19,189 nucleotides of DNA, from contig JAYEOM010000029.1 of the NCBI GenBank assembly GCA_034722955.1, positions 2,275-21,463 on the forward strand, in the 5' to 3' direction. Positions 10,709 to 18,865 of the stretch are shown piece by piece. Position numbers and translations under genes: made by a program. Each line of letters opens with the position of its first letter. Position 1 is the first letter of the stretch. This DNA comes from Campylobacterota bacterium. Lineage in GTDB: Bacteria; Campylobacterota; Campylobacteria; Campylobacterales; Sulfurovaceae. Below the pieces are notes generated by a model, which did no database searches, was not told where the DNA came from, and saw only the letters and a program-made list of their open reading frames with translations.

Positions 10709-10720
10709 GATACTACTTTA

Positions 10721-11012
10721 GGCTACCCCAAGGAGATAAACACCCAAATAGCTTTATGAGGTTTTTCATAGACAAGGCAATCGTTTGCAGGACTAGCCTT
10801 AGCTAATTGCCCGTAGGAAATGCCCTTGGGGTACAAAAACGATTAACGAAGTCATATGGGAAACCTCATAAAGCCCGTAGGGAAGTCACCAAGAGGGCAA
10901 TCTTCACAAAATATAATTCTCCAATTAGCTATGGCTAGTCCTACGAATTATATTTTGCAAATCTTACCCTCTTGGTGACTTCTATTTGTGTGTTTATCTC
11001 CTTGGGGTAGCC
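10721..11012. mobile_element. 292-bp MITE-like non-autonomous element with 31-bp TIRs and TTA target duplication
   Basis: TIRs ggctaccccaaggagataaacac(c/a)caaatag at 10721-10751 and 10982-11012 (30/31 match). TTA on both flanks (10718-10720, 11013-11015). No transposase ORF. Confidence 0.85.
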
Positions 11013-11979
11013 TTAGCAGACCGTTTGTCCGCTCTATAAACTCTTCAACTCTCTCTGACTCATCAAACTGTGTCGATACAACTTTGAAGCTCATATCAGG
11101 ATATGCCATAAAGTTGTGATTTTCAAGTGCTTGGCGTAGGCGTGCCTCAAGGATAGGAGCCCCCTCTACACCTGTATCGGGCAGGATGATGAGAAATAGG
11201 TTCTCATCATAACGACAAGCGATATCACTGGTGCGTGTGAGAGAGTTGATCAAGCCTCCCAGGATGGACGATATATGTGACTTCTCCTGCTTGGTGTAGA
11301 CTCTGCTTTTTCTGTCGAGATTGGCTGACTCTACAGAGATCATAGAGAGTGGGTAGTCGTGACGCTTCGATCTGGAACAAGCACTCTCTAGATGGCTGAT
11401 GAGATAGTTGTGATTAAAGAGTTTGGTCGGAATATCATAGATAGTATGTTTTGATAACTGCTTGTGCATATATTCACGCACCACAAAGATCATCAGAAGC
11501 AGAAAGATAACAGTAAGCAGAAAACTGATATAGAAGATATTTTCAACTCTATTTTGTTTAAGTGAGAGCATCTTGTCTACAGTAAAAGTGACTGATTTCA
11601 CTGCTCTCCAGCACTCCAATGCATTTTTGTTCTCAGGATCTGCTCGGAGTTCTCTCCAGCAGGATAGCACTCTATCGTAATCCTCTTGAAGTGTACGCCC
11701 TCCGACATAAAACTTTATTCTCCTGTTTGATTCAAACCATGGCGTGAGCCGCTCCAAGTCTCGATCTATTCGAGATCCAATCTCTTCGCGTTTGACTTCA
11801 TCATCTATCTGCTCATAAACAAGCATCTCGCCGCCACTCCTGCTCAACTGATGCATGACTGCTGTATCGGATGCTGCATCCTGTATGGCACTGTAGTTAA
11901 AGTAAAAACTAAAAGGGAGTATCAAAATCCCAAAATAGAGTAGCAGAGTGATACGGCAGTTTGACCAAGATGGTTGCAT
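10948..11979 (-). CDS. Membrane-bound sensor protein with degenerate GGDEF domain
   Basis: Two TM segments flank a periplasmic domain. YDIPTKLFN, YPLSMI, RTSDIACRY-DENLF-LIILPDT, with DENLF in place of GGDEF. AAGGA RBS. The last 21 aa derive from the MITE. Confidence 0.8.
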   Translation of the reverse strand: MQPSWSNCRITLLLYFGILILPFSFYFNYSAIQDAASDTAVMHQLSRSGGEMLVYEQIDDEVKREEIGSRIDRDLERLTPWFESNRRIKFYVGGRTLQEDYDRVLSCWRELRADPENKNALECWRAVKSVTFTVDKMLSLKQNRVENIFYISFLLTVIFLLLMIFVVREYMHKQLSKHTIYDIPTKLFNHNYLISHLESACSRSKRHDYPLSMISVESANLDRKSRVYTKQEKSHISSILGGLINSLTRTSDIACRYDENLFLIILPDTGVEGAPILEARLRQALENHNFMAYPDMSFKVVSTQFDESERVEEFIERTNGLLRLPQGDKHTNRSHQEGKICKI

Positions 11980-12021: not shown

Positions 12022-12486
12022 TTAATGCTCTATTAGAGTACCGCGTAGAGGTATGGGAAAAGTCTCTATATCTATAAGCAGACGCAATCTATCGCAGTAG
12101 TGGTTACTGCTACTGCCAAACTCTATGATGAGAGTTTCACTCTCTGATCCTGGATTGTCGATCTTGAGGATGATACAGTCACTACTATCTTCTATGATGA
12201 TATTGGCAATATGATTGCCTGTGTCAGTCGCCTCATTTTGGTTGACCATGACACGGATACTATCGGACATATCAGACAGATGAGCCGTTGTCTCTCCCCT
12301 GGCGACTGCATAAGAGACTATATCATTGGCTGCTGTCATAATGTTTTGTGCTTTTACCGAGAGCTTTGCATCCCATCTGGTAGCAGAGAGTTTAGGGATA
12401 GCAACCGCTGCCAAAATACCGATGATTACGATAACAAAGATCAACTCTATCATGGTGAAAGCTTTTCTATTTTTTATAATTAACAT
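12022..12486 (-). CDS. Type IV pilin/pseudopilin-like protein (prepilin N-terminal cleavage/methylation domain)
   Basis: RKA|FTMIELIFVIVIIGILAAVAIPKL class III signal with Glu5, two Cys in the C-terminal domain, AGGAG RBS. Confidence 0.88.
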   Translation of the reverse strand: MLIIKNRKAFTMIELIFVIVIIGILAAVAIPKLSATRWDAKLSVKAQNIMTAANDIVSYAVARGETTAHLSDMSDSIRVMVNQNEATDTGNHIANIIIEDSSDCIILKIDNPGSESETLIIEFGSSSNHYCDRLRLLIDIETFPIPLRGTLIEH

Positions 12487-12651: not shown

Positions 12652-13020
12652 ATGAAACGCGGATTTACTATGATCGAATTGATCTTTGTTATCGTTATTA
12701 TCGGTATTTTGGCAGCGGTTGCCATCCCTAAACTAGCAGCGACTAGAGATGATGCTAAAATCAGTACAGAGTTGAACAACCTATCGACTTGTATCAATGA
12801 TGTTGGTTCTGCATATACTGCACGAGGTGTATATGATAAGGACACACAGGCTTGTAATGCAGTAAAATGTTTTACTTTTACCAATAGTCAATATAACCTT
12901 CAGGTCTCGAATAATTCTGATGGTGGGTCACATTGTCCACAGGCAAATAGTGCTGCTAATTCAAAAGGTCTTGTAACTACTCATATCTTTGCAGGTACAG
13001 GTATAGACTACGACCAATAA
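12652..13020 (+). CDS. Type IV pilin-like protein (prepilin N-terminal cleavage/methylation domain)
   Basis: MKRG|FTMIELIFVIVIIGILAAVAIPKLAATRDDAK, four Cys. AAGGAG RBS places the start at ATG 12652 rather than 12619. Confidence 0.9.
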   Translation: MKRGFTMIELIFVIVIIGILAAVAIPKLAATRDDAKISTELNNLSTCINDVGSAYTARGVYDKDTQACNAVKCFTFTNSQYNLQVSNNSDGGSHCPQANSAANSKGLVTTHIFAGTGIDYDQ

Positions 13021-13036
13021 ATATATGGCTGCTGTT

Positions 13037-13063
13037 TAGAGCTTCTCTTTAGAGAAAGCTCTA
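13037..13063 (+). terminator. Stem-loop after the pilin gene (terminator or mRNA-stabilising hairpin)
   Basis: TAGAGCTT-CTCT-tt-AGAG-a-AAGCTCTA, with no immediate U-tract. Confidence 0.45.
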
Positions 13064-13084
13064 GGCACGGTTTAGATTTTATTT

Positions 13085-13124
13085 TTTAGATAAAATTAAT
13101 TAGAAATATTTAATTTTATCTAAA
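13085..13124. promoter_or_regulatory. Perfect 15-bp inverted repeat containing -10-like GATAAAAT on both strands
   Basis: TTTAGATAAAATTAA-N10-TTAATTTTATCTAAA upstream of pglB. Confidence 0.5.
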
Positions 13125-13187
13125 GAGTATTTTATCTCCAAGATATTAGACAAAGCTTCATATATCTCACTATATACAAAGGAGTAT

Positions 13188-15380
13188 TTGTTGACTATCA
13201 CAACAAGACTACAAAAAACAATCAGTTCACTTCTGTTGCCACAAGAAAACAGTAGTAGCAAAAAATTTTTACTCTACATACTTTTTGCTTATCTCTTTGG
13301 GATGATTGTTAGATTGACAACACTGGTGCAAGCACTGCAGATAGAAGCTTTCTGGCAAGATGGCAACCCTGTGGCTATCTGGACACCGGATGCAGGACGA
13401 TATGGATACTATGCGAAGGTTCTTTTGGATGGGGGTGACCTCCCTCTGAGTGCTGACTATCTGACCGGCTATCTTGTGGCGGGTCTCTCCTCTCTCTTCT
13501 CTATATCTGTAGAGTGGGTGATGCTCATACTCCCGGTTATCATCGCACCATTGATCGTGGTACCTATGATGATGATAGCCAAGAGCATAAACCAGCTCAC
13601 ACTGGGATTTTTAGCTTCTCTGATCGCAGTGAGTGAAAGCTACTACTATGCACGAACCAGTTTGGGATTTATGGACACTGATGGTGTCAATCTGCTTTTG
13701 ATCTTGTTCTCTTTGGCATTTATAGTCAAATCTATTCTGGAGAAAAAGCTGAGCTACGCTGTGACTGCTGCTCTATTTTTGCAACTCTTTTCACTATGGT
13801 ATCACTCCTCCAATATTATAAATCTCTTGATAATAGGTGTCTCTCTTGTGGTTGTATTGGTCTACTATCGCAGAGAGGCGGCAGCGGTACAACTCATATT
13901 TTTATTGGGAGTATCTGTTATACCTATCTCTTTTGGATTAAAACTGCTGGCTCTGTCTCTGCTATTTCTGCTCTTTGCTCTACTGAACAGATATAGAAAG
14001 ATATCTCCCAAAATCTACTTTTTTGTACTCTTCTCCTCTATAGCTATAGTAGCACTCTATATAGGGCCGGCACACTATCTCCATCGTGCAATGATCTATC
14101 TATCTCCAAATATTCAGCTGCACTACGGCACAAATGGCATTGACTACTCTTATGCAAATGACCTGCTGTCTGTTAGTGAAGCATCACCCTCAAGATTATG
14201 GGATTCTGGGGCTCCCCATTTTATGACAGATTTTTATCTGATGGTTGGGATAGTAGGGTATATACTCTTTGCTCTAGTCTATCCTCCTATGCTCTTTGTG
14301 GCTCCACTATTTGTGCTTGGTGCATTGTCTGCTTGGGGCGGTATACGCTTCTCTATGTATGCTACACCGGCATTGGCGTTTGGTGCTACCTATCTCCTGT
14401 ATCTACTGAAAGAGCTTTTTGCTAGATATCTCAAACCCTCAAGATATAGCAGTAGATTCCCATTCTATGTGACGACGCTCATCTTGCTATTGATGATATA
14501 TAATATTTTGATGATAAATATGTCTGCAATGCTAAAGACCAATATATATGCTCCTGAGGCAAAAGCACTAAAGGCAATTTCAAAAGATTTGAAAGATAGA
14601 GATACTATCATCAGCTGGTGGGATTATGGCTGGCCCCTATGGTACTATACCGGATATGACAATACTCTGGTTGACAATGGTAGGCACGGTGGTCCTGATT
14701 CATATATTATCGCTCGCATGTTGATAAGTTCAGATCCAGAGTACACTCGTAATACAGCTGTTATCTTAGGTGACAATAGATTGAAGTCAGTTGATAGGGG
14801 ATATAAGTTTGTATTGCCATACTTGGCGGAAGAGCATAACCTCTCAGCTCTCTTCTCTATGGACAAGAGAGATATAGAACTCTCCAAAGAGAGTCCGAGT
14901 GGTGATATATATATCATGCTTCACCATAAGATGTTGGATTATCTTGGTGTGTTAAATAGCTTTTCAAGAGAGAAGTTGACGGGTGGTTCATCAGGCTCTC
15001 TGCCTGTTGTGCGTATAACTGATCTTGTAAAGCCCTTCTCCTCCAACCATAGCCTAGTGGAGGGGTATTCGTATATACTAGATAGCAGTGACGGCAAGGT
15101 GCTAGATGCCAAAGGCAACAAAACAGCAGTCTCGGCAGTCACTATAGTCTCTGGTAACAAGAGAGAGAAGGGCTATCGATTTGAACATAAAGATGAAGAG
15201 ACTAAAGGTCAAGTAATAGTTTATCAAAATAAGTTCATCTGGCTAGACCAAGAGCTCTATGATAGTTTTTTCATCCAAGCAATGCTCTTTGATCTATATG
15301 ATAAAGATCTTTTTGAGAAGGTAGCTGAGACAGAGAGGATCAAGATCTTTAAGATAAAGAGATCCGGCAAGGATCAATAA
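13188..15380 (+). CDS. pglB: STT3/PglB-family N-oligosaccharyltransferase
   Basis: Multi-TM N-terminal domain. WTPD, YYART…DTD, SVSE, GIRF, WWDYG (14616-14630) and DNGRH motifs correspond to the PglB catalytic motifs. TTG start with AAGGAG RBS. Confidence 0.92.
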   Translation: MLTITTRLQKTISSLLLPQENSSSKKFLLYILFAYLFGMIVRLTTLVQALQIEAFWQDGNPVAIWTPDAGRYGYYAKVLLDGGDLPLSADYLTGYLVAGLSSLFSISVEWVMLILPVIIAPLIVVPMMMIAKSINQLTLGFLASLIAVSESYYYARTSLGFMDTDGVNLLLILFSLAFIVKSILEKKLSYAVTAALFLQLFSLWYHSSNIINLLIIGVSLVVVLVYYRREAAAVQLIFLLGVSVIPISFGLKLLALSLLFLLFALLNRYRKISPKIYFFVLFSSIAIVALYIGPAHYLHRAMIYLSPNIQLHYGTNGIDYSYANDLLSVSEASPSRLWDSGAPHFMTDFYLMVGIVGYILFALVYPPMLFVAPLFVLGALSAWGGIRFSMYATPALAFGATYLLYLLKELFARYLKPSRYSSRFPFYVTTLILLLMIYNILMINMSAMLKTNIYAPEAKALKAISKDLKDRDTIISWWDYGWPLWYYTGYDNTLVDNGRHGGPDSYIIARMLISSDPEYTRNTAVILGDNRLKSVDRGYKFVLPYLAEEHNLSALFSMDKRDIELSKESPSGDIYIMLHHKMLDYLGVLNSFSREKLTGGSSGSLPVVRITDLVKPFSSNHSLVEGYSYILDSSDGKVLDAKGNKTAVSAVTIVSGNKREKGYRFEHKDEETKGQVIVYQNKFIWLDQELYDSFFIQAMLFDLYDKDLFEKVAETERIKIFKIKRSGKDQ

Positions 15381-16726
15381 CTCCCCCTCTTGTATATAAC
15401 TGCGTCTAGTGTTTTGATCAAAATCATGATATCGAGATCAATAGACCAGTTGCGTACATACCATACATCCAACTGTACCCGCTCCATATAGTCAATATCA
15501 TTTCGTCCGCTCACTTGCCATAGACCTGTGATACCAGGGTTGACGGCAGAAAAATAGTGGAAATACTCCCCATATTTTACTATCTCCTTTTTGACAATAG
15601 GACGGGGTCCCACTAGTGACATCTCACCACGAAGGACATTGTATAGTTGTGGGAGTTCATCGAGAGATGTTTTGCGTAGGAAGTTGCCTATAGGGGTGAT
15701 GCGAGGGTCATTTTTGAGTTTATGCTCCCGCTCCCACTCTCTCCTAGCATTTTCATCTCTAGCTAGCACTCTCTCTAGTGCTTCATCGGCATCTGTTCGC
15801 ATAGTTCTGAACTTATAGATAGCAAATGGTTTACCTCTCCTTCCGATACGCATCTGAGTATAGATGGGATTGCCCGGACTTAGGAGTATGATCATCAGGT
15901 ATATGATCAGAAGTATAGGCAGAAGTGTGATGGTAATGAGCAGTGCTAGCATAAGATCAAAACTGTTTTTAATAAACTTGTCTAGTGGATGGAGGAGATT
16001 GTTTTTGATACTAAATGCAACACCTTTTTGAGTGATAGATCCGATGATCTCTGCATTTATGAGTGGGACTTTGCTAAGTTTTGGCAACAGAAGCAGGCGG
16101 CTAAAATCTTTTTGGAGTGTCTCTAGCCATTGAAAAGTTTCATCCATAGTGGCAGACTCTATCGCCACGACTACTGCGTAGAATGATTGATGGTTTGAGA
16201 TCATCTCTAACTCTCTAGGTATATCAGTATGCTCTTCGAGTAGGATAGTCTCTGCAATGACAAAACCAAAGGTCTCCTTTCCGTTGAACCAAGCATGGAC
16301 TTTTTTCAAGCCTTCGTCATCACAGATCACAAGAATCTGCTCTTGCAACCATGGGTATCTCAGCAGTATCTGCCGGATAAAATAGATGGGCAGAGGCAGT
16401 AGTAGATTGAGCATAAAATAGCTGATAACGATGAAACGAGAGTACTCTTCACTCTGCTTGGAGACAAAAAGGATCGAAAATAGTGCGATGAGTGCAAGAG
16501 TATCTGCTTTTATGATATTGAGCGATTGGGTTGAGCTTGCCATTCGGTTGCCAAAGAGCCCAAAGACAAAAAAAAAGAGAGCATATACCCCTATAAACCA
16601 AAAGTAGTGACCAAGAGGATGTGCTGCTATATCGCTGATGAAATAGCTAGATAGTGTATGGGCGACCAGTAGATTGACAAAGAGAAAAAAGATGTAGAGT
16701 GATGCCATAGTGACAAAGTAACGCAT
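15374..16726 (-). CDS. wbaP: Undecaprenyl-phosphate hexose-1-phosphate transferase, WbaP family
   Basis: N-terminal TMs and C-terminal Bac_transf domain: KNSFD, YKFRTM, KLKNDPRIT, LRKTSLDELPQ, MSLVGPRP, PGITGLWQVSGRN, YVRNWS. TGATG coupling to the upstream gene. Sugar specificity cannot be proven from sequence. Confidence 0.88.
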   Translation of the reverse strand: MRYFVTMASLYIFFLFVNLLVAHTLSSYFISDIAAHPLGHYFWFIGVYALFFFVFGLFGNRMASSTQSLNIIKADTLALIALFSILFVSKQSEEYSRFIVISYFMLNLLLPLPIYFIRQILLRYPWLQEQILVICDDEGLKKVHAWFNGKETFGFVIAETILLEEHTDIPRELEMISNHQSFYAVVVAIESATMDETFQWLETLQKDFSRLLLLPKLSKVPLINAEIIGSITQKGVAFSIKNNLLHPLDKFIKNSFDLMLALLITITLLPILLIIYLMIILLSPGNPIYTQMRIGRRGKPFAIYKFRTMRTDADEALERVLARDENARREWEREHKLKNDPRITPIGNFLRKTSLDELPQLYNVLRGEMSLVGPRPIVKKEIVKYGEYFHYFSAVNPGITGLWQVSGRNDIDYMERVQLDVWYVRNWSIDLDIMILIKTLDAVIYKRGSY

Positions 16727-17514
16727 CAAGATCTCCTCCTCCTGCTGAAGATCTTGCGCTTGAGCATCTCCATACCTTTGTTAAATAGATCTTCTCCTTC
16801 TAGATTGACTACTTCTAACTCAACAGTATTTAGAGTGTTGTGTCGTAACCAGACATTGAAGAGTCGCTCTCCCATAAATCCAAAAACCCGTTTCTGATAA
16901 GCATCGCGACCACTAACATCGATCTTCTCCTCTAGCGAGAATAGTAGAGGAAAGAGCCACTGGCAGTAGCTATCAAAGAGAGAATCGGACATCACAAACA
17001 TATTGTAGAGATAGAGTGATCGTTGCTTCAAAACTTGGTCAAAGGCTTGTAGATACTCAGGTGATCTCTCAAGAACTACCTCTCTGAGTATATCCATATC
17101 TTTATGGTAGTGAGCATGAGCATAGTGCGAAGAGATGGTTTCGATGTAGTAGTGTCGTTTTTTTGGGACGATGACATCATATGATGAGAGCAGGGTTTTG
17201 ATACTATCCTCATCGAGTATAGAGAGCTCTCCAAATTTATCGCTCGCAAACTTCTCATCCCCTGCAAAATAACGACGATAGTGTACTAGTCCAACATAGT
17301 CACTATCATCAAAATATCTGTTTTTCCAAGCCCAATAGAGTGCTGTAAGCTCACAAAAAGTGTCGTTTTTATCTGAAATATTATCTCCACTACTATCATA
17401 TAGGTAACCGAACCTAATGGTTCTAAGTGCTGTACCTACCTGTATGGGATGATAGAGTGGATCTTCAGGAAACTGGTATGGTCTGTGTGTTGCCACTAGT
17501 ATAGTACTTCTCAA
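16726..17514 (-). CDS. DUF4422 glycosyltransferase (GT111-type, putative galactofuranosyltransferase)
   Basis: VATH, PIQVG, GDNISDKNDTFCELTALYWAWKN, GLVHYRRYF, NMFVM, RVFGFMGERLFNVW. Coupled to glf by a TTGA overlap. Confidence 0.85.
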   Translation of the reverse strand: MRSTILVATHRPYQFPEDPLYHPIQVGTALRTIRFGYLYDSSGDNISDKNDTFCELTALYWAWKNRYFDDSDYVGLVHYRRYFAGDEKFASDKFGELSILDEDSIKTLLSSYDVIVPKKRHYYIETISSHYAHAHYHKDMDILREVVLERSPEYLQAFDQVLKQRSLYLYNMFVMSDSLFDSYCQWLFPLLFSLEEKIDVSGRDAYQKRVFGFMGERLFNVWLRHNTLNTVELEVVNLEGEDLFNKGMEMLKRKIFSRRRRS

Positions 17515-18653
17515 AATATCTCCTCAAAAAGTTCTAATGCCCTAGATACGATATCATCCATATCATAGTACCTGTATTCAGCAAGTCTCCCTATAAGTAT
17601 AAGGTTCTCTATCTCTTGTGCTCTCATAGCATATCTCCTATATTTTTCTTGATCTTTTAGTCTAAAGAGTGGGTAGTAGGGTAGATTTTCTCCTCGTATG
17701 TATGGTTGTGGGTACTCCTTGAGGATAGTTGTATTTTCGGTCGTCACGGGGTGGATATGTTTGAACTCTGTAATGCGTGTAAAGTCATACTCATTGGGGT
17801 AGTTGATGACACTCTTGGCTTGATACCACTCTTTTGAAATGTATTCAAAATCGAGCCGAAGAGAACGGTAGTCAAGCGATCCGAAGCACTCATCAAAGAG
17901 CTCATCTATCATACCCGTGAATAGCAATTTTCCCCCAAAGGGCTCACCACGGTAATAGATCTGGTCGCCCTCTATTTTGATCTCACTCTGAAAGGGTGTA
18001 TCAAGAGAGAGGGCGATCAGAGGATGTGCCAATAGCCTTTCAAATAGAGCCGTATAGCCCTCATTTGGCAGCTGTTGATATCTATCTTGAAAGTAGCGGT
18101 TGTCCCTGCTGATATGGACAGGTACTCTCGCTGTGACATCGAGATCTATCTCTTCAGGTCTCATCCCCCACTGCTTGATGGTGTAGTTCAAAAAAACATT
18201 TTTGTAAATATAGTCACTAAGCTCCTTTAGGTCAGTATCATCTGTTTTTTGTAACTCCAGAATGGGTACTTTGTCTCCATAGCCATATCGCTCTATCAGT
18301 TTGGCTTCAAGCTTTTTGGCTCTCTCTTCAGGGAAAAGCATATCGATACTATTGAGGTTGAAAGGTATCGGTACCTCCCTCCCTTCGATAGATGCCAATA
18401 CTTCATGCTCATAAGATTCCCAATCAGTAAAATTGGATAGATAGTCAATGACAGCTCTGTTGTCTGTATGGAAAAGGTGGGGTCCATACTGATGTATGCG
18501 AATGCCATTGGTATCTATAGTATCAAAACAGTTACCCCCAATATGAGAGCGTTTTTCGATGATATTTACGCTTTTGCCTAGCAGAGTAGTGATCCGTTCC
18601 GCCATCACCGCCCCGGCAAATCCTGCACCTACTATTAGATAATCATACATCAC
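17511..18653 (-). CDS. glf: UDP-galactopyranose mutase
   Basis: YLIVGAGFAGAV FAD motif, HIGGNCFD, YGPHLFHT, YTIKQWG, YFQDRYQ, TRITEFKH, PYYP, GRLAEYRYYDMD. Start is GTG 18653 or ATG 18650. Confidence 0.96.
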   Translation of the reverse strand: MMYDYLIVGAGFAGAVMAERITTLLGKSVNIIEKRSHIGGNCFDTIDTNGIRIHQYGPHLFHTDNRAVIDYLSNFTDWESYEHEVLASIEGREVPIPFNLNSIDMLFPEERAKKLEAKLIERYGYGDKVPILELQKTDDTDLKELSDYIYKNVFLNYTIKQWGMRPEEIDLDVTARVPVHISRDNRYFQDRYQQLPNEGYTALFERLLAHPLIALSLDTPFQSEIKIEGDQIYYRGEPFGGKLLFTGMIDELFDECFGSLDYRSLRLDFEYISKEWYQAKSVINYPNEYDFTRITEFKHIHPVTTENTTILKEYPQPYIRGENLPYYPLFRLKDQEKYRRYAMRAQEIENLILIGRLAEYRYYDMDDIVSRALELFEEIF

Positions 18654-18865
18654 TACTCAACCTTTTGGTAGATTACTTCTACTGTATTATGAGATAAATT
18701 ATAGGGTTTTATGGCTTTGAATAAGGTTGCTACTACTCTTTTCATAACTAGATGTCAAAGGCAATACTCTATCCAACGCTTCATTTATGATTTTTTTCCT
18801 TGTCAAGTCTTAAAAATACGCTAAAGCCCCTGCTGTAGAAGACCGACTCGTTTGTATTTTTTATC

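Follow-up and report, generated by a model that had tools for sequence, protein, structure and literature searches.

The subject of this analysis is a 19,189-nucleotide stretch of DNA (hereafter the window) from a sulfur-oxidising member of the Sulfurovum group (Campylobacterota, Sulfurovaceae; GenBank assembly GCA_034722955.1), in which genes encoding type IV pilins, an oligosaccharyltransferase (OST) of the STT3/PglB family and enzymes of glycan synthesis lie side by side. The window covers positions 2275-21463 of contig C29 (JAYEOM010000029.1; 21463 bp), such that its end is the end of the contig and the sequence stops 0.5 kb past glf. As read from the list of open reading frames (ORFs), the gene for a type IV pilin designated pilin B (12652-13020, plus strand; 122-residue precursor; N_methyl 1.4e-06, TIGR02532 3.7e-08) precedes an intact STT3/PglB gene of the same strand (13188-15380, plus strand; 730 residues; Pfam STT3 1e-21, STT3-PglB_core 8.4e-17), the 3' end of which meets a convergent operon composed of glf, a DUF4422 (GT111) gene and a wbaP-type gene. 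The PglB and wbaP-type genes overlap by 7 bp at their 3' ends (15374-15380). This layout had been described in an original prediction made from the sequence of the window, and is confirmed by the ORF coordinates and Pfam matches; overlooked there was a second, divergent pilin gene, that of pilin A (12022-12486, minus strand; 154 residues; N_methyl 8.4e-07 together with TIGR02532). Both pilin genes are matched by PF07963 and TIGR02532 and display the hallmarks of type IV pilins, namely a short leader, a G↓F(T/S)xxE-type motif and a hydrophobic N-terminal helix. Pilin B is preceded by a ribosome binding site (RBS; aaggag), begins with the ATG at 12652 and carries the leader MKRG↓FTMIEL, and the cleavage motif of pilin A reads KA↓FTMIEL.

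Within the convergent operon, glf is the first gene and the wbaP-type gene the last. Glf (17511-18653, minus strand; 380 residues) is a UDP-galactopyranose mutase (TIGR00031 484.3 bits, cut-off 303.75), and the stand-alone DUF4422/GT111 glycosyltransferase (16726-17514, minus strand; 262 residues; PF14393 2.2e-89, 299.5 bits) matches residues 31-279 of WbbM (6U4B, 6e-33). The WbaP-type polytopic phosphoglycosyl transferase (15374-16729, minus strand; 451 residues; Bac_transf 9.8e-66, PF02397 221 bits) has S. enterica WbaP as its best solved relative (8T53, 5e-75; PglC 2e-32); it exceeds the TIGR03025 cut-off (339 bits versus 296) and falls one bit under that of TIGR03022 (402 bits versus 403). 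At the glf/DUF4422 and DUF4422/wbaP junctions the ORF coordinates overlap by 4 bp, and the RBS of each downstream gene is found inside the upstream gene (gaggag ... TTGA and aggagg ... TGATG), an arrangement of overlapping stop and start codons and internal RBSs that fits translational coupling and bears out the earlier description of the operon as translationally coupled. The GT111 domain is reported to be a UDP-galactofuranose (UDP-Galf) transferase that, together with Glf, builds lipopolysaccharide (LPS) galactans in Klebsiella and Kingella, and in Kingella a stand-alone GT111 gene adjoins the mutase gene (pamA-pamB) and is thought to add the first galactofuranose (Galf) residue (PMC12269835). 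The stand-alone GT111 of the window is likewise predicted to be a UDP-Galf transferase, and both glf and the GT111 gene are single-copy in the genome, occurring only in the window. Scanning of the window ORFs revealed no pglA/C/D/E/F/H/I/J/K-like gene and no flippase gene, in line with the original statement (which had not named pglI), and the remaining genes of the window are housekeeping in nature (ComM-like, Def, ClpP, Tig, FolE, NifS, NifU, PqiA-like and inositol monophosphatase).

The WWDYGW-type PglB paralogue and its relatives

Bacterial N-glycosylation is understood almost wholly from PglB of Campylobacter, with its N-acetylated reducing-end sugar and its D/E-X-N-X-S/T sequon. Second copies of PglB in Helicobacter and some Campylobacter have been known for more than a decade, and are described in the available accounts without an assigned function (PMC6025236, PMC4894442). 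The OST of the window, the start of which is probably the second TTG (13191), belongs to the STT3 family (PF02516 78.4 bits, cut-off 24.5; PF21436 62.4 bits, cut-off 23) and aligns over its full length with Campylobacter lari PglB (3RCE; E 4e-58; residues 20-726 versus 9-713; ~25% identical). Its catalytic and metal-binding residues D68, D163/D165 and E331, along with R156 and the pyrophosphate-binding R387, correspond to D56, D154/D156, E319, R147 and R375 of the C. lari enzyme and are invariant across 22 clade members. The WWDYG motif is kept (residues 477-481), and the catalytic Glu (the E319 equivalent), present in 49/49 aligned sequences, sits in an SVSE motif that replaces TIxE. The score against the NCBIfam PglB equivalog NF050801 is 225 bits (cut-off 1300), and PF18527, the PglB C-terminal beta-barrel domain, finds no match in the window OST, though the 3RCE alignment reaches the C-terminus. 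The enzyme belongs to a distinct PglB subfamily of the Campylobacterota, here termed WWDYGW-type.

The original prediction had allowed for the window gene being the only pglB in the genome, which it is not. A second copy on contig C35 is 26% identical to the window OST, possesses the PglB C-terminal beta-barrel (matching PF18527), the sequence WWDYGY and an Arg at the Arg331 column, and is followed by a gene for a 198-residue PglC-type protein. The presence of this canonical pglB-pglC pair indicates that the window OST is an extra paralogue.

Of 121 genomes sampled from the family, 95 yielded an orthologue of the canonical PglB and six the WDYGWP motif, namely the window genome and five of the six genomes of one other genus. 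Within the window's own genus the motif occurs in 0/13 other genomes; the genome G012 contains a 160-residue, clade-A-like fragment (see below for clade A) that is 49% identical. Across bacteria and archaea, sampled at one genome per species, the WWDYGWP coding pattern gave 65 matches, ~40 of them in Sulfurovum, Sulfurimonas, Sulfuricurvum, Nitratiruptor and related metagenome-assembled genomes (MAGs), in addition to Arcobacter sp. 15-2; no named genome of Helicobacter or Campylobacter is among them. A large protein database yielded 23 further proteins that are 40-74% identical to the window OST. In a tree of 49 sequences built with FastTree, rooted on the canonical copies and read for its topology, the window enzyme, P0004-P0026, L050, L051, L052 and L059 form a monophyletic group (clade A) that is nested inside the Campylobacterota PglBs and has the enzymes of Sulfurimonas-like genomes as its sister group.

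Substitutions at functionally important columns accompany this branching. In C. lari PglB, a hydrogen bond links Tyr468 to the N-acetyl carbonyl of the reducing-end sugar, and the residue is said to be both essential and strictly conserved (PMC6215017); in the alignment this column (Trp482 in the window enzyme) holds Trp in 46/46 WWDYGW-type enzymes and Tyr in 3/3 canonical ones. Since Tyr468 contacts the C2 N-acetyl group, its replacement by Trp fits a hexose-initiated donor, and thereby also the earlier remark that a hexose at the reducing end would be unusual for a PglB. Arg331 has been proposed to read the Asp at position -2 of the sequon, though not as its sole determinant, and a Desulfovibrio PglB with Ser at this position is reported to prefer non-acidic -2 residues (PMC4894442). 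The Arg331 column contains Pro, Ala or Ser in 16/16 clade-A enzymes and Arg in 3/3 canonical, 1/10 sister-group and 3/20 other enzymes; the residue of the window enzyme is Ser in the pairwise 3RCE alignment and Pro in the multiple alignment (as in 14/16 clade-A enzymes), the alignment of this loop being uncertain. The broader statement that the whole WWDYGW-type subfamily lacks an Arg331 equivalent was thus found to be wrong, and is true of the pilin-linked clade only, in which loss of the -2-reading Arg fits the short sequons of the adjoining pilins. The MxxI motif of the window enzyme reads MLDY, and its Ile column is occupied by Tyr, Phe or Ser in 16/16 clade-A enzymes (aromatic in 15/16).

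Gene context was read for five clade-A loci (the window, L050, L051, L052 and L059; P0004-P0026 lie outside this set), and in 5/5 of these pilin genes lie directly beside the enzyme, be it upstream, downstream or on both sides, with differing outer flanks. The window has two pilins upstream of the OST. In L059, a Sulfurovum MAG, the order is GGDEF, pilin A (minus strand), pilin B (plus strand), OST and a third pilin, followed by convergent Wzy_C, ManC and Gmd genes; L050 presents a pilin fragment, the OST, a pilin and convergent Wzy_C and Glf genes; and in L051 and L052 the OST is followed by a B-type pilin and then by unrelated or sugar-nucleotide genes. Relatives of pilin B (64-68% identical) adjoin the enzyme in L051, L052 and L059, and an orthologue of pilin A (62% identical) is present in L059. 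The Wzy_C-family gene, of a family that takes in O-antigen ligases, polymerases and pilin O-glycosyltransferases, lies convergent to the third pilin in both L050 (3013-4281, minus strand; then glf) and L059 (9545-10879, minus strand; then genes of the GDP-mannose pathway), and its product may be a glycan polymerase or a second, O-linking pilin enzyme.

The sister group displays a different set of neighbours. A WbaP-type gene is found within 3 kb of the OST in 12/14 sister-group loci, in nine of them convergent and abutting or overlapping it; behind this gene there are often GT4 genes and a two-component system, and no pilins are present. WbaP-type neighbours also occur in two deeper branches (L076 and L091), and the partnership on the donor side therefore looks ancestral to the subfamily. 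The window joins the pilin side of clade A to the WbaP partnership that characterises the sister group. Synteny of the full order pilin-pglB-wbaP-DUF4422-glf, the recurrence of which had been put forward as a test, is accordingly borne out in part: the pilin-PglB association recurs in all five clade-A loci and glf lies near the L050 enzyme, but the complete order was seen nowhere else, and adjacency to wbaP is a property of the pilin-free sister group.

The extent of the operon can be gauged from the same comparison. A PIN-domain gene fragment cut at the contig end (18866-19189, minus strand; PIN_3 1.4e-4, under the Pfam cut-off) is 55% identical to a PIN gene located directly after wbaP in the sister-group locus L010, which suggests that glf and the GT111 gene were inserted between wbaP and PIN and that these three genes make up the whole operon. 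The 212-bp non-coding stretch 5' of glf (18654-18865, minus strand; read from the sequence) is probably the operon's own promoter region. A promoter consensus scan gave 27 matches versus 21.4 +/- 4.7 in shuffled sequence, which is no excess, and matches at the level of the consensus only upstream of glf.

Several further arrangements around WWDYGW-type genes were recorded. The sister-group module (L010, L066, L067, L068, L007) is composed of an aldo-keto reductase, a 160-residue lipoprotein, the WWDYGW-type PglB, convergent wbaP, GT4 genes, a response regulator and a HisKA_2 kinase. The lipoprotein gene lies upstream of the OST in five sister-group loci, these being all that have a readable upstream side, and its product was considered as a general acceptor and rejected, as 4/5 copies are without a sequon. 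In L011, L012 and L013 the OST is followed by two conserved same-strand proteins without a Pfam family (~220 and 620-715 residues). In Arcobacter sp. 15-2, a gene for a 464-residue protein without a Pfam family (L091 5290-6684, minus strand) stands at the start of an operon with four pseudopilin-like genes and is transcribed divergently from a WWDYGW-type PglB of a deep branch; the protein contains 18 N-X-S/T sequons, 14 of them with D/E at -2, and a canonical PglB is encoded 13 kb away on the same chromosome.

Sequons of the adjoining pilins

Pilin B, a candidate acceptor of the predicted glycan, contains two sequons, NLS at position 39 of the mature protein and NNS at position 83. Across the nine pilins beside clade-A enzymes, D/E is found at position -2 in only 1/23 sequons. 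The corresponding counts are 16/24 in four genomes with a canonical PglB only (WWDYGY checked in three), 52/78 in 31 pilin B-like proteins drawn from another 20 genomes, in which WDYGWP was not found (18/20 with a canonical PglB), and 10/29 in a genus that has a different WWDYGW-type branch in addition to a canonical PglB. Comparison of 1/23 with the pooled 68/102 gives a Fisher P of ~2e-8, a value that is overstated, as the sequences are related and the genomes are not independent. At homologous sites N-x-T is kept and the acid is gone, with DGN[IV]T in other pilins corresponding to GGNLT, QGNLT and TNNLT beside clade-A enzymes. Similarly, a third-type pilin encoded on C63 of the window's genome reads DENHS where the pilins beside the enzyme in L059 and L050 read SANHT. 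When the seven B-type and third-type pilins of clade-A loci are taken together, 22 sequons are observed versus 14.4 expected (P = 0.014).

In the 31-protein set (loci L107-L126), sequons number 78 versus 52.0 +/- 6.1 expected from shuffling, and extended D/E-X-N-X-S/T sequons 52 versus 5.4 +/- 2.3, with 0/5000 shuffles containing as many. The extended sequons recur at EDN[ST]T, DGN[IV]T and D[LM]NGT sites in pilins of the family. This excess suggests that pilins are regular targets of canonical PglB, that is, N-glycoproteins, in Sulfurovum-group chemolithotrophs.

A candidate pilin glycosylation pathway and its alternatives

Building upon the gene identities, catalytic residues, substitutions, synteny and sequon statistics described above, we infer a donor structure, an acceptor, a flippase and a biological role as follows. 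Glf would make UDP-Galf, the WbaP-type enzyme would prime undecaprenyl phosphate with a hexose-1-phosphate, probably galactose, and the stand-alone GT111 would add Galf. A flippase encoded elsewhere, candidates being the Wzx located within a glycosyltransferase cluster on C129 and an ABC transporter on C25, would carry the short lipid-linked glycan across to the periplasmic side of the membrane, where the WWDYGW-type PglB paralogue would transfer it to Asn of N-X-S/T sites in the neighbouring pilins, and the MSHA-like type IV pilus machinery would then assemble the glycosylated subunits. The genome encodes a prepilin peptidase (Peptidase_A24, C89) and, on C131, an MSHA-like cluster comprising an MshE-like ATPase with an MshEN domain, a platform protein (T2SSF), a secretin and AAA_22. 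We consider the chances even that the locus is such a module for glycosylating pilus subunits, with a second, specialised N-OST at its core. A more far-reaching proposal, possible but held with distinctly less confidence, is that WWDYGW-type enzymes constitute a separate class of bacterial N-OST that by virtue of the Tyr468 to Trp change handles hexose-started, WbaP-primed glycans, and that one clade has been recruited to a pilin locus, where it glycosylates minimal N-X-S/T sequons without an acidic -2 residue.

A number of observations weigh against this interpretation. Pilin A has no N-X-S/T site, the two sequons of pilin B (1.6 expected, P = 0.5) are at chance level, and pilin B is without the two best-conserved sites (NLQ instead of NLT); with all nine clade-A pilins pooled, the 23 sequons compare with 17.0 expected and the excess is marginal (P = 0.056). 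Additionally, wbaP is not adjacent to the enzyme in the other four clade-A loci. The single G012 pilin examined, encoded on a contig other than that of the clade-A-like fragment, has an acidic -2 residue in 2/3 sequons. In a genus designated g5, in which searches for STT3/PglB with three queries detected none (0/9, 0/5 and 0/7 genomes), pilins nonetheless carry D/E at -2 in 10/19 sequons (G017, G079, G102, G095; L201-L205), possibly as a result of recent enzyme loss, an undetected transferase or a structural role of the motif; four other genomes without a detectable PglB show D/E at -2 in 1/8 sequons. That acidic sequons strictly mark the presence of a canonical PglB is contradicted by genus g5, and the comparison was kept as a group contrast only.

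The scarcity of sequons in the window pilins is also what would be seen were the paralogue a second general N-OST that places a second glycan on many periplasmic or surface proteins, with pilin adjacency reflecting co-regulation or shared descent. Sister-group enzymes adjoin the conserved 160-residue lipoprotein rather than pilins, other branches have still other neighbours, and the L059 genome, the completeness of which is uncertain, contains one PF21436 match and this type of OST only, such that the enzyme would serve all N-glycosylation there. We nevertheless regard a general role as unlikely, as pilin adjacency in all five clade-A loci has persisted despite rearrangements and differing flanks, loss of the acidic -2 residue is specific to the adjacent pilins (the C63 pilin keeps DENHS), and the sister-group lipoproteins in most cases lack an acceptor site altogether. 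Slightly less likely again, and not exclusive of the proposed module, is a situation in which glf, GT111 and wbaP mainly build an LPS O-antigen or surface polysaccharide for a WaaL-type ligase, with the proximity of PglB being irrelevant or the glycan merely shared. The only Wzy_C/WaaL-type gene of the genome lies on C25 in an LPS core cluster together with heptosyltransferases, a lipid A acyltransferase and the MsbA/PglK-like ABC transporter, and such an O-antigen ligase could use the same lipid-linked glycan, a further point against a dedicated pilin system; moreover, the GT111-Glf combination is reported to serve LPS galactan synthesis in Klebsiella and Kingella (PMC12269835), and the contig end 0.5 kb beyond glf leaves room for more glycan genes. 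Such a primary role in LPS makes it hard to explain, unless there is a functional link, why a WbaP-type gene abuts a WWDYGW-type PglB in 12/14 sister-group loci and two deeper branches, and it is further opposed by the synteny of the PIN gene with L010, which suggests a three-gene operon, and by the window, where no polymerase, chain-length regulator or ABC exporter was found.

The reported requirement for Tyr468 in C. lari PglB (PMC6215017) also counts against a functional pilin transferase, since its replacement by Trp could mean a different or a lost activity, and together with the fixation of Trp in 46/46 enzymes it lends some weight to the view that WWDYGW-type proteins are not protein glycosyltransferases at all, and might instead release free oligosaccharide from the lipid carrier by hydrolysis, or transfer the glycan to a non-protein acceptor. 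In the same vein, the paralogue PglB2 of H. pullorum is reported to have shown no transfer in three assay systems and no activity (PMC6025236), a result that may not apply to the present subfamily given that WWDYGWP occurs in no named Helicobacter or Campylobacter genome. The invariance of the metal-binding and catalytic residues, of the WWD peptide-binding motif and of the Arg375 equivalent, along with the retention of N-x-S/T at homologous sites of the adjoining pilins, makes a non-protein acceptor or hydrolytic role quite improbable.

Comparison with known systems highlights both similarities to and differences from the proposed pilin module. Like C. jejuni and C. lari PglB (GT66; 3RCE, 5OGL, 6GXC), the window OST displays full-length homology, the catalytic residues and WWDYG; unlike them, it lies in a pilin locus instead of a pgl cluster, and its initiating partner is of the WbaP rather than the PglC type. 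H. pullorum likewise has a second divergent pglB beside a working PglB1, scattered pgl genes and conserved catalytic residues, but the accessible part of its description mentions no link to pilins (PMC6025236), and WWDYGWP is found in no named Helicobacter or Campylobacter record. Pseudomonas TfpO/PilO and TfpW and Neisseria PglL resemble the window in having a glycosyltransferase gene beside a pilin and an undecaprenol-linked glycan, the units of which may be shared with the O-antigen; these are, however, O-linking enzymes of the Wzy_C family or GT-C arabinosyl enzymes, and with no Wzy_C gene in the window the system is not of the TfpO/PilO/PglL type. Klebsiella WbbM, Kingella PamA-PamB and Salmonella WbaP are comparable in GT111 homology, in the position of GT111 next to a mutase and as the closest solved galactose-1-phosphate transferase, respectively, but build LPS galactans or O-antigen, whereas the window genes abut an N-OST and pilins. 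In archaea, the STT3-family enzyme AglB modifies type IV pilins and archaellins at short N-X-S/T sequons, and hexose-linked glycans occur. The window enzyme differs from AglB in being, as placed by the tree, a paralogue of the bacterial PglB lineage, and its carrier is presumably undecaprenyl diphosphate.

Full-text literature searches on pilin N-glycosylation and PglB in Campylobacterota returned only archaeal N-glycosylated and bacterial O-linked pilins, and the data presented here suggest a dedicated pilin N-glycosylation system of a kind not yet described in bacteria. The locus offers a subfamily of PglB paralogues a candidate acceptor in the neighbouring pilins, a candidate donor pathway of WbaP-type priming followed by Galf addition, and two residue changes that could explain altered donor and acceptor specificity. 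Were the proposal correct, these would be the first N-glycosylated bacterial type IV pili, a trait that has until now been described in archaea alone, and the enzyme would be a natural OST free of the limits that a reducing-end N-acetyl sugar and an extended sequon impose upon PglB, with possible use in glycoengineering and glycoconjugate production.

Pilin pair, GGDEF neighbour and the remaining genome

To the left of pilin A, on the same strand, lies the gene for a GGDEF-domain membrane protein (10948-11979, minus strand; Pfam GGDEF 6.2e-12), the Pfam match of which is partial (2-113 of 161) and degenerate, reading DENLF where GGDEF is expected. Orthologues with 28-43% identity adjoin pilin pairs in L059, G026, G036, G032, G073 and G090, and the order GGDEF-pilin A-pilin B is kept in relatives without the WWDYGW-type paralogue. 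A degenerate-GGDEF membrane protein is therefore a conserved neighbour of the divergent pilin pair throughout the family (L059 4774-5730; L104, L105, L106, L100, L102). Together with the MshEN domain, of a type that binds c-di-GMP, on the pilus ATPase of C131, this neighbour provides a hint of c-di-GMP control of the pili. Directly 3' of the pilin B stop codon, a stable hairpin followed by a T-rich stretch (13027-13072, plus strand; RNA fold -27.4 kcal/mol; z = -4.2, with 1/200 shuffles as good) is likely a terminator or attenuator that separates pilin B from the OST gene. Scans of the window with Rfam, at the gathering threshold, and for tRNA genes gave no match. A search for sequencing runs brought up four DNA sources, all belonging to a single study, and no RNA source.

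Elsewhere in the genome, two further pilin genes are present on C63, two PilT-like ATPases are encoded, and a separate type II secretion-like cluster is located on C17. Other sugar genes are scattered; C28, for example, carries a PglF-like gene, and several DegT aminotransferases are encoded. A second WbaP-type transferase (440 residues; 51% identical over the catalytic domain) is encoded on C38 (L093 3407-9900) near a GtrA-GT2-PMT_2 (ArnT-like) trio, which by its gene content is a putative separate lipid-linked sugar modification system.

Between the inositol monophosphatase and GGDEF genes, the window contains an element of ~300 bp (10719-11017) with terminal inverted repeats taggctaccccaaggagataaacac ... 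gtgtttatctccttggggtagccta, from which the GGDEF ORF takes its final ~22 codons. The corresponding 22-residue stretch matches ~20 other places in the genome, and the element therefore looks like a repeat of the miniature inverted-repeat transposable element (MITE) type.

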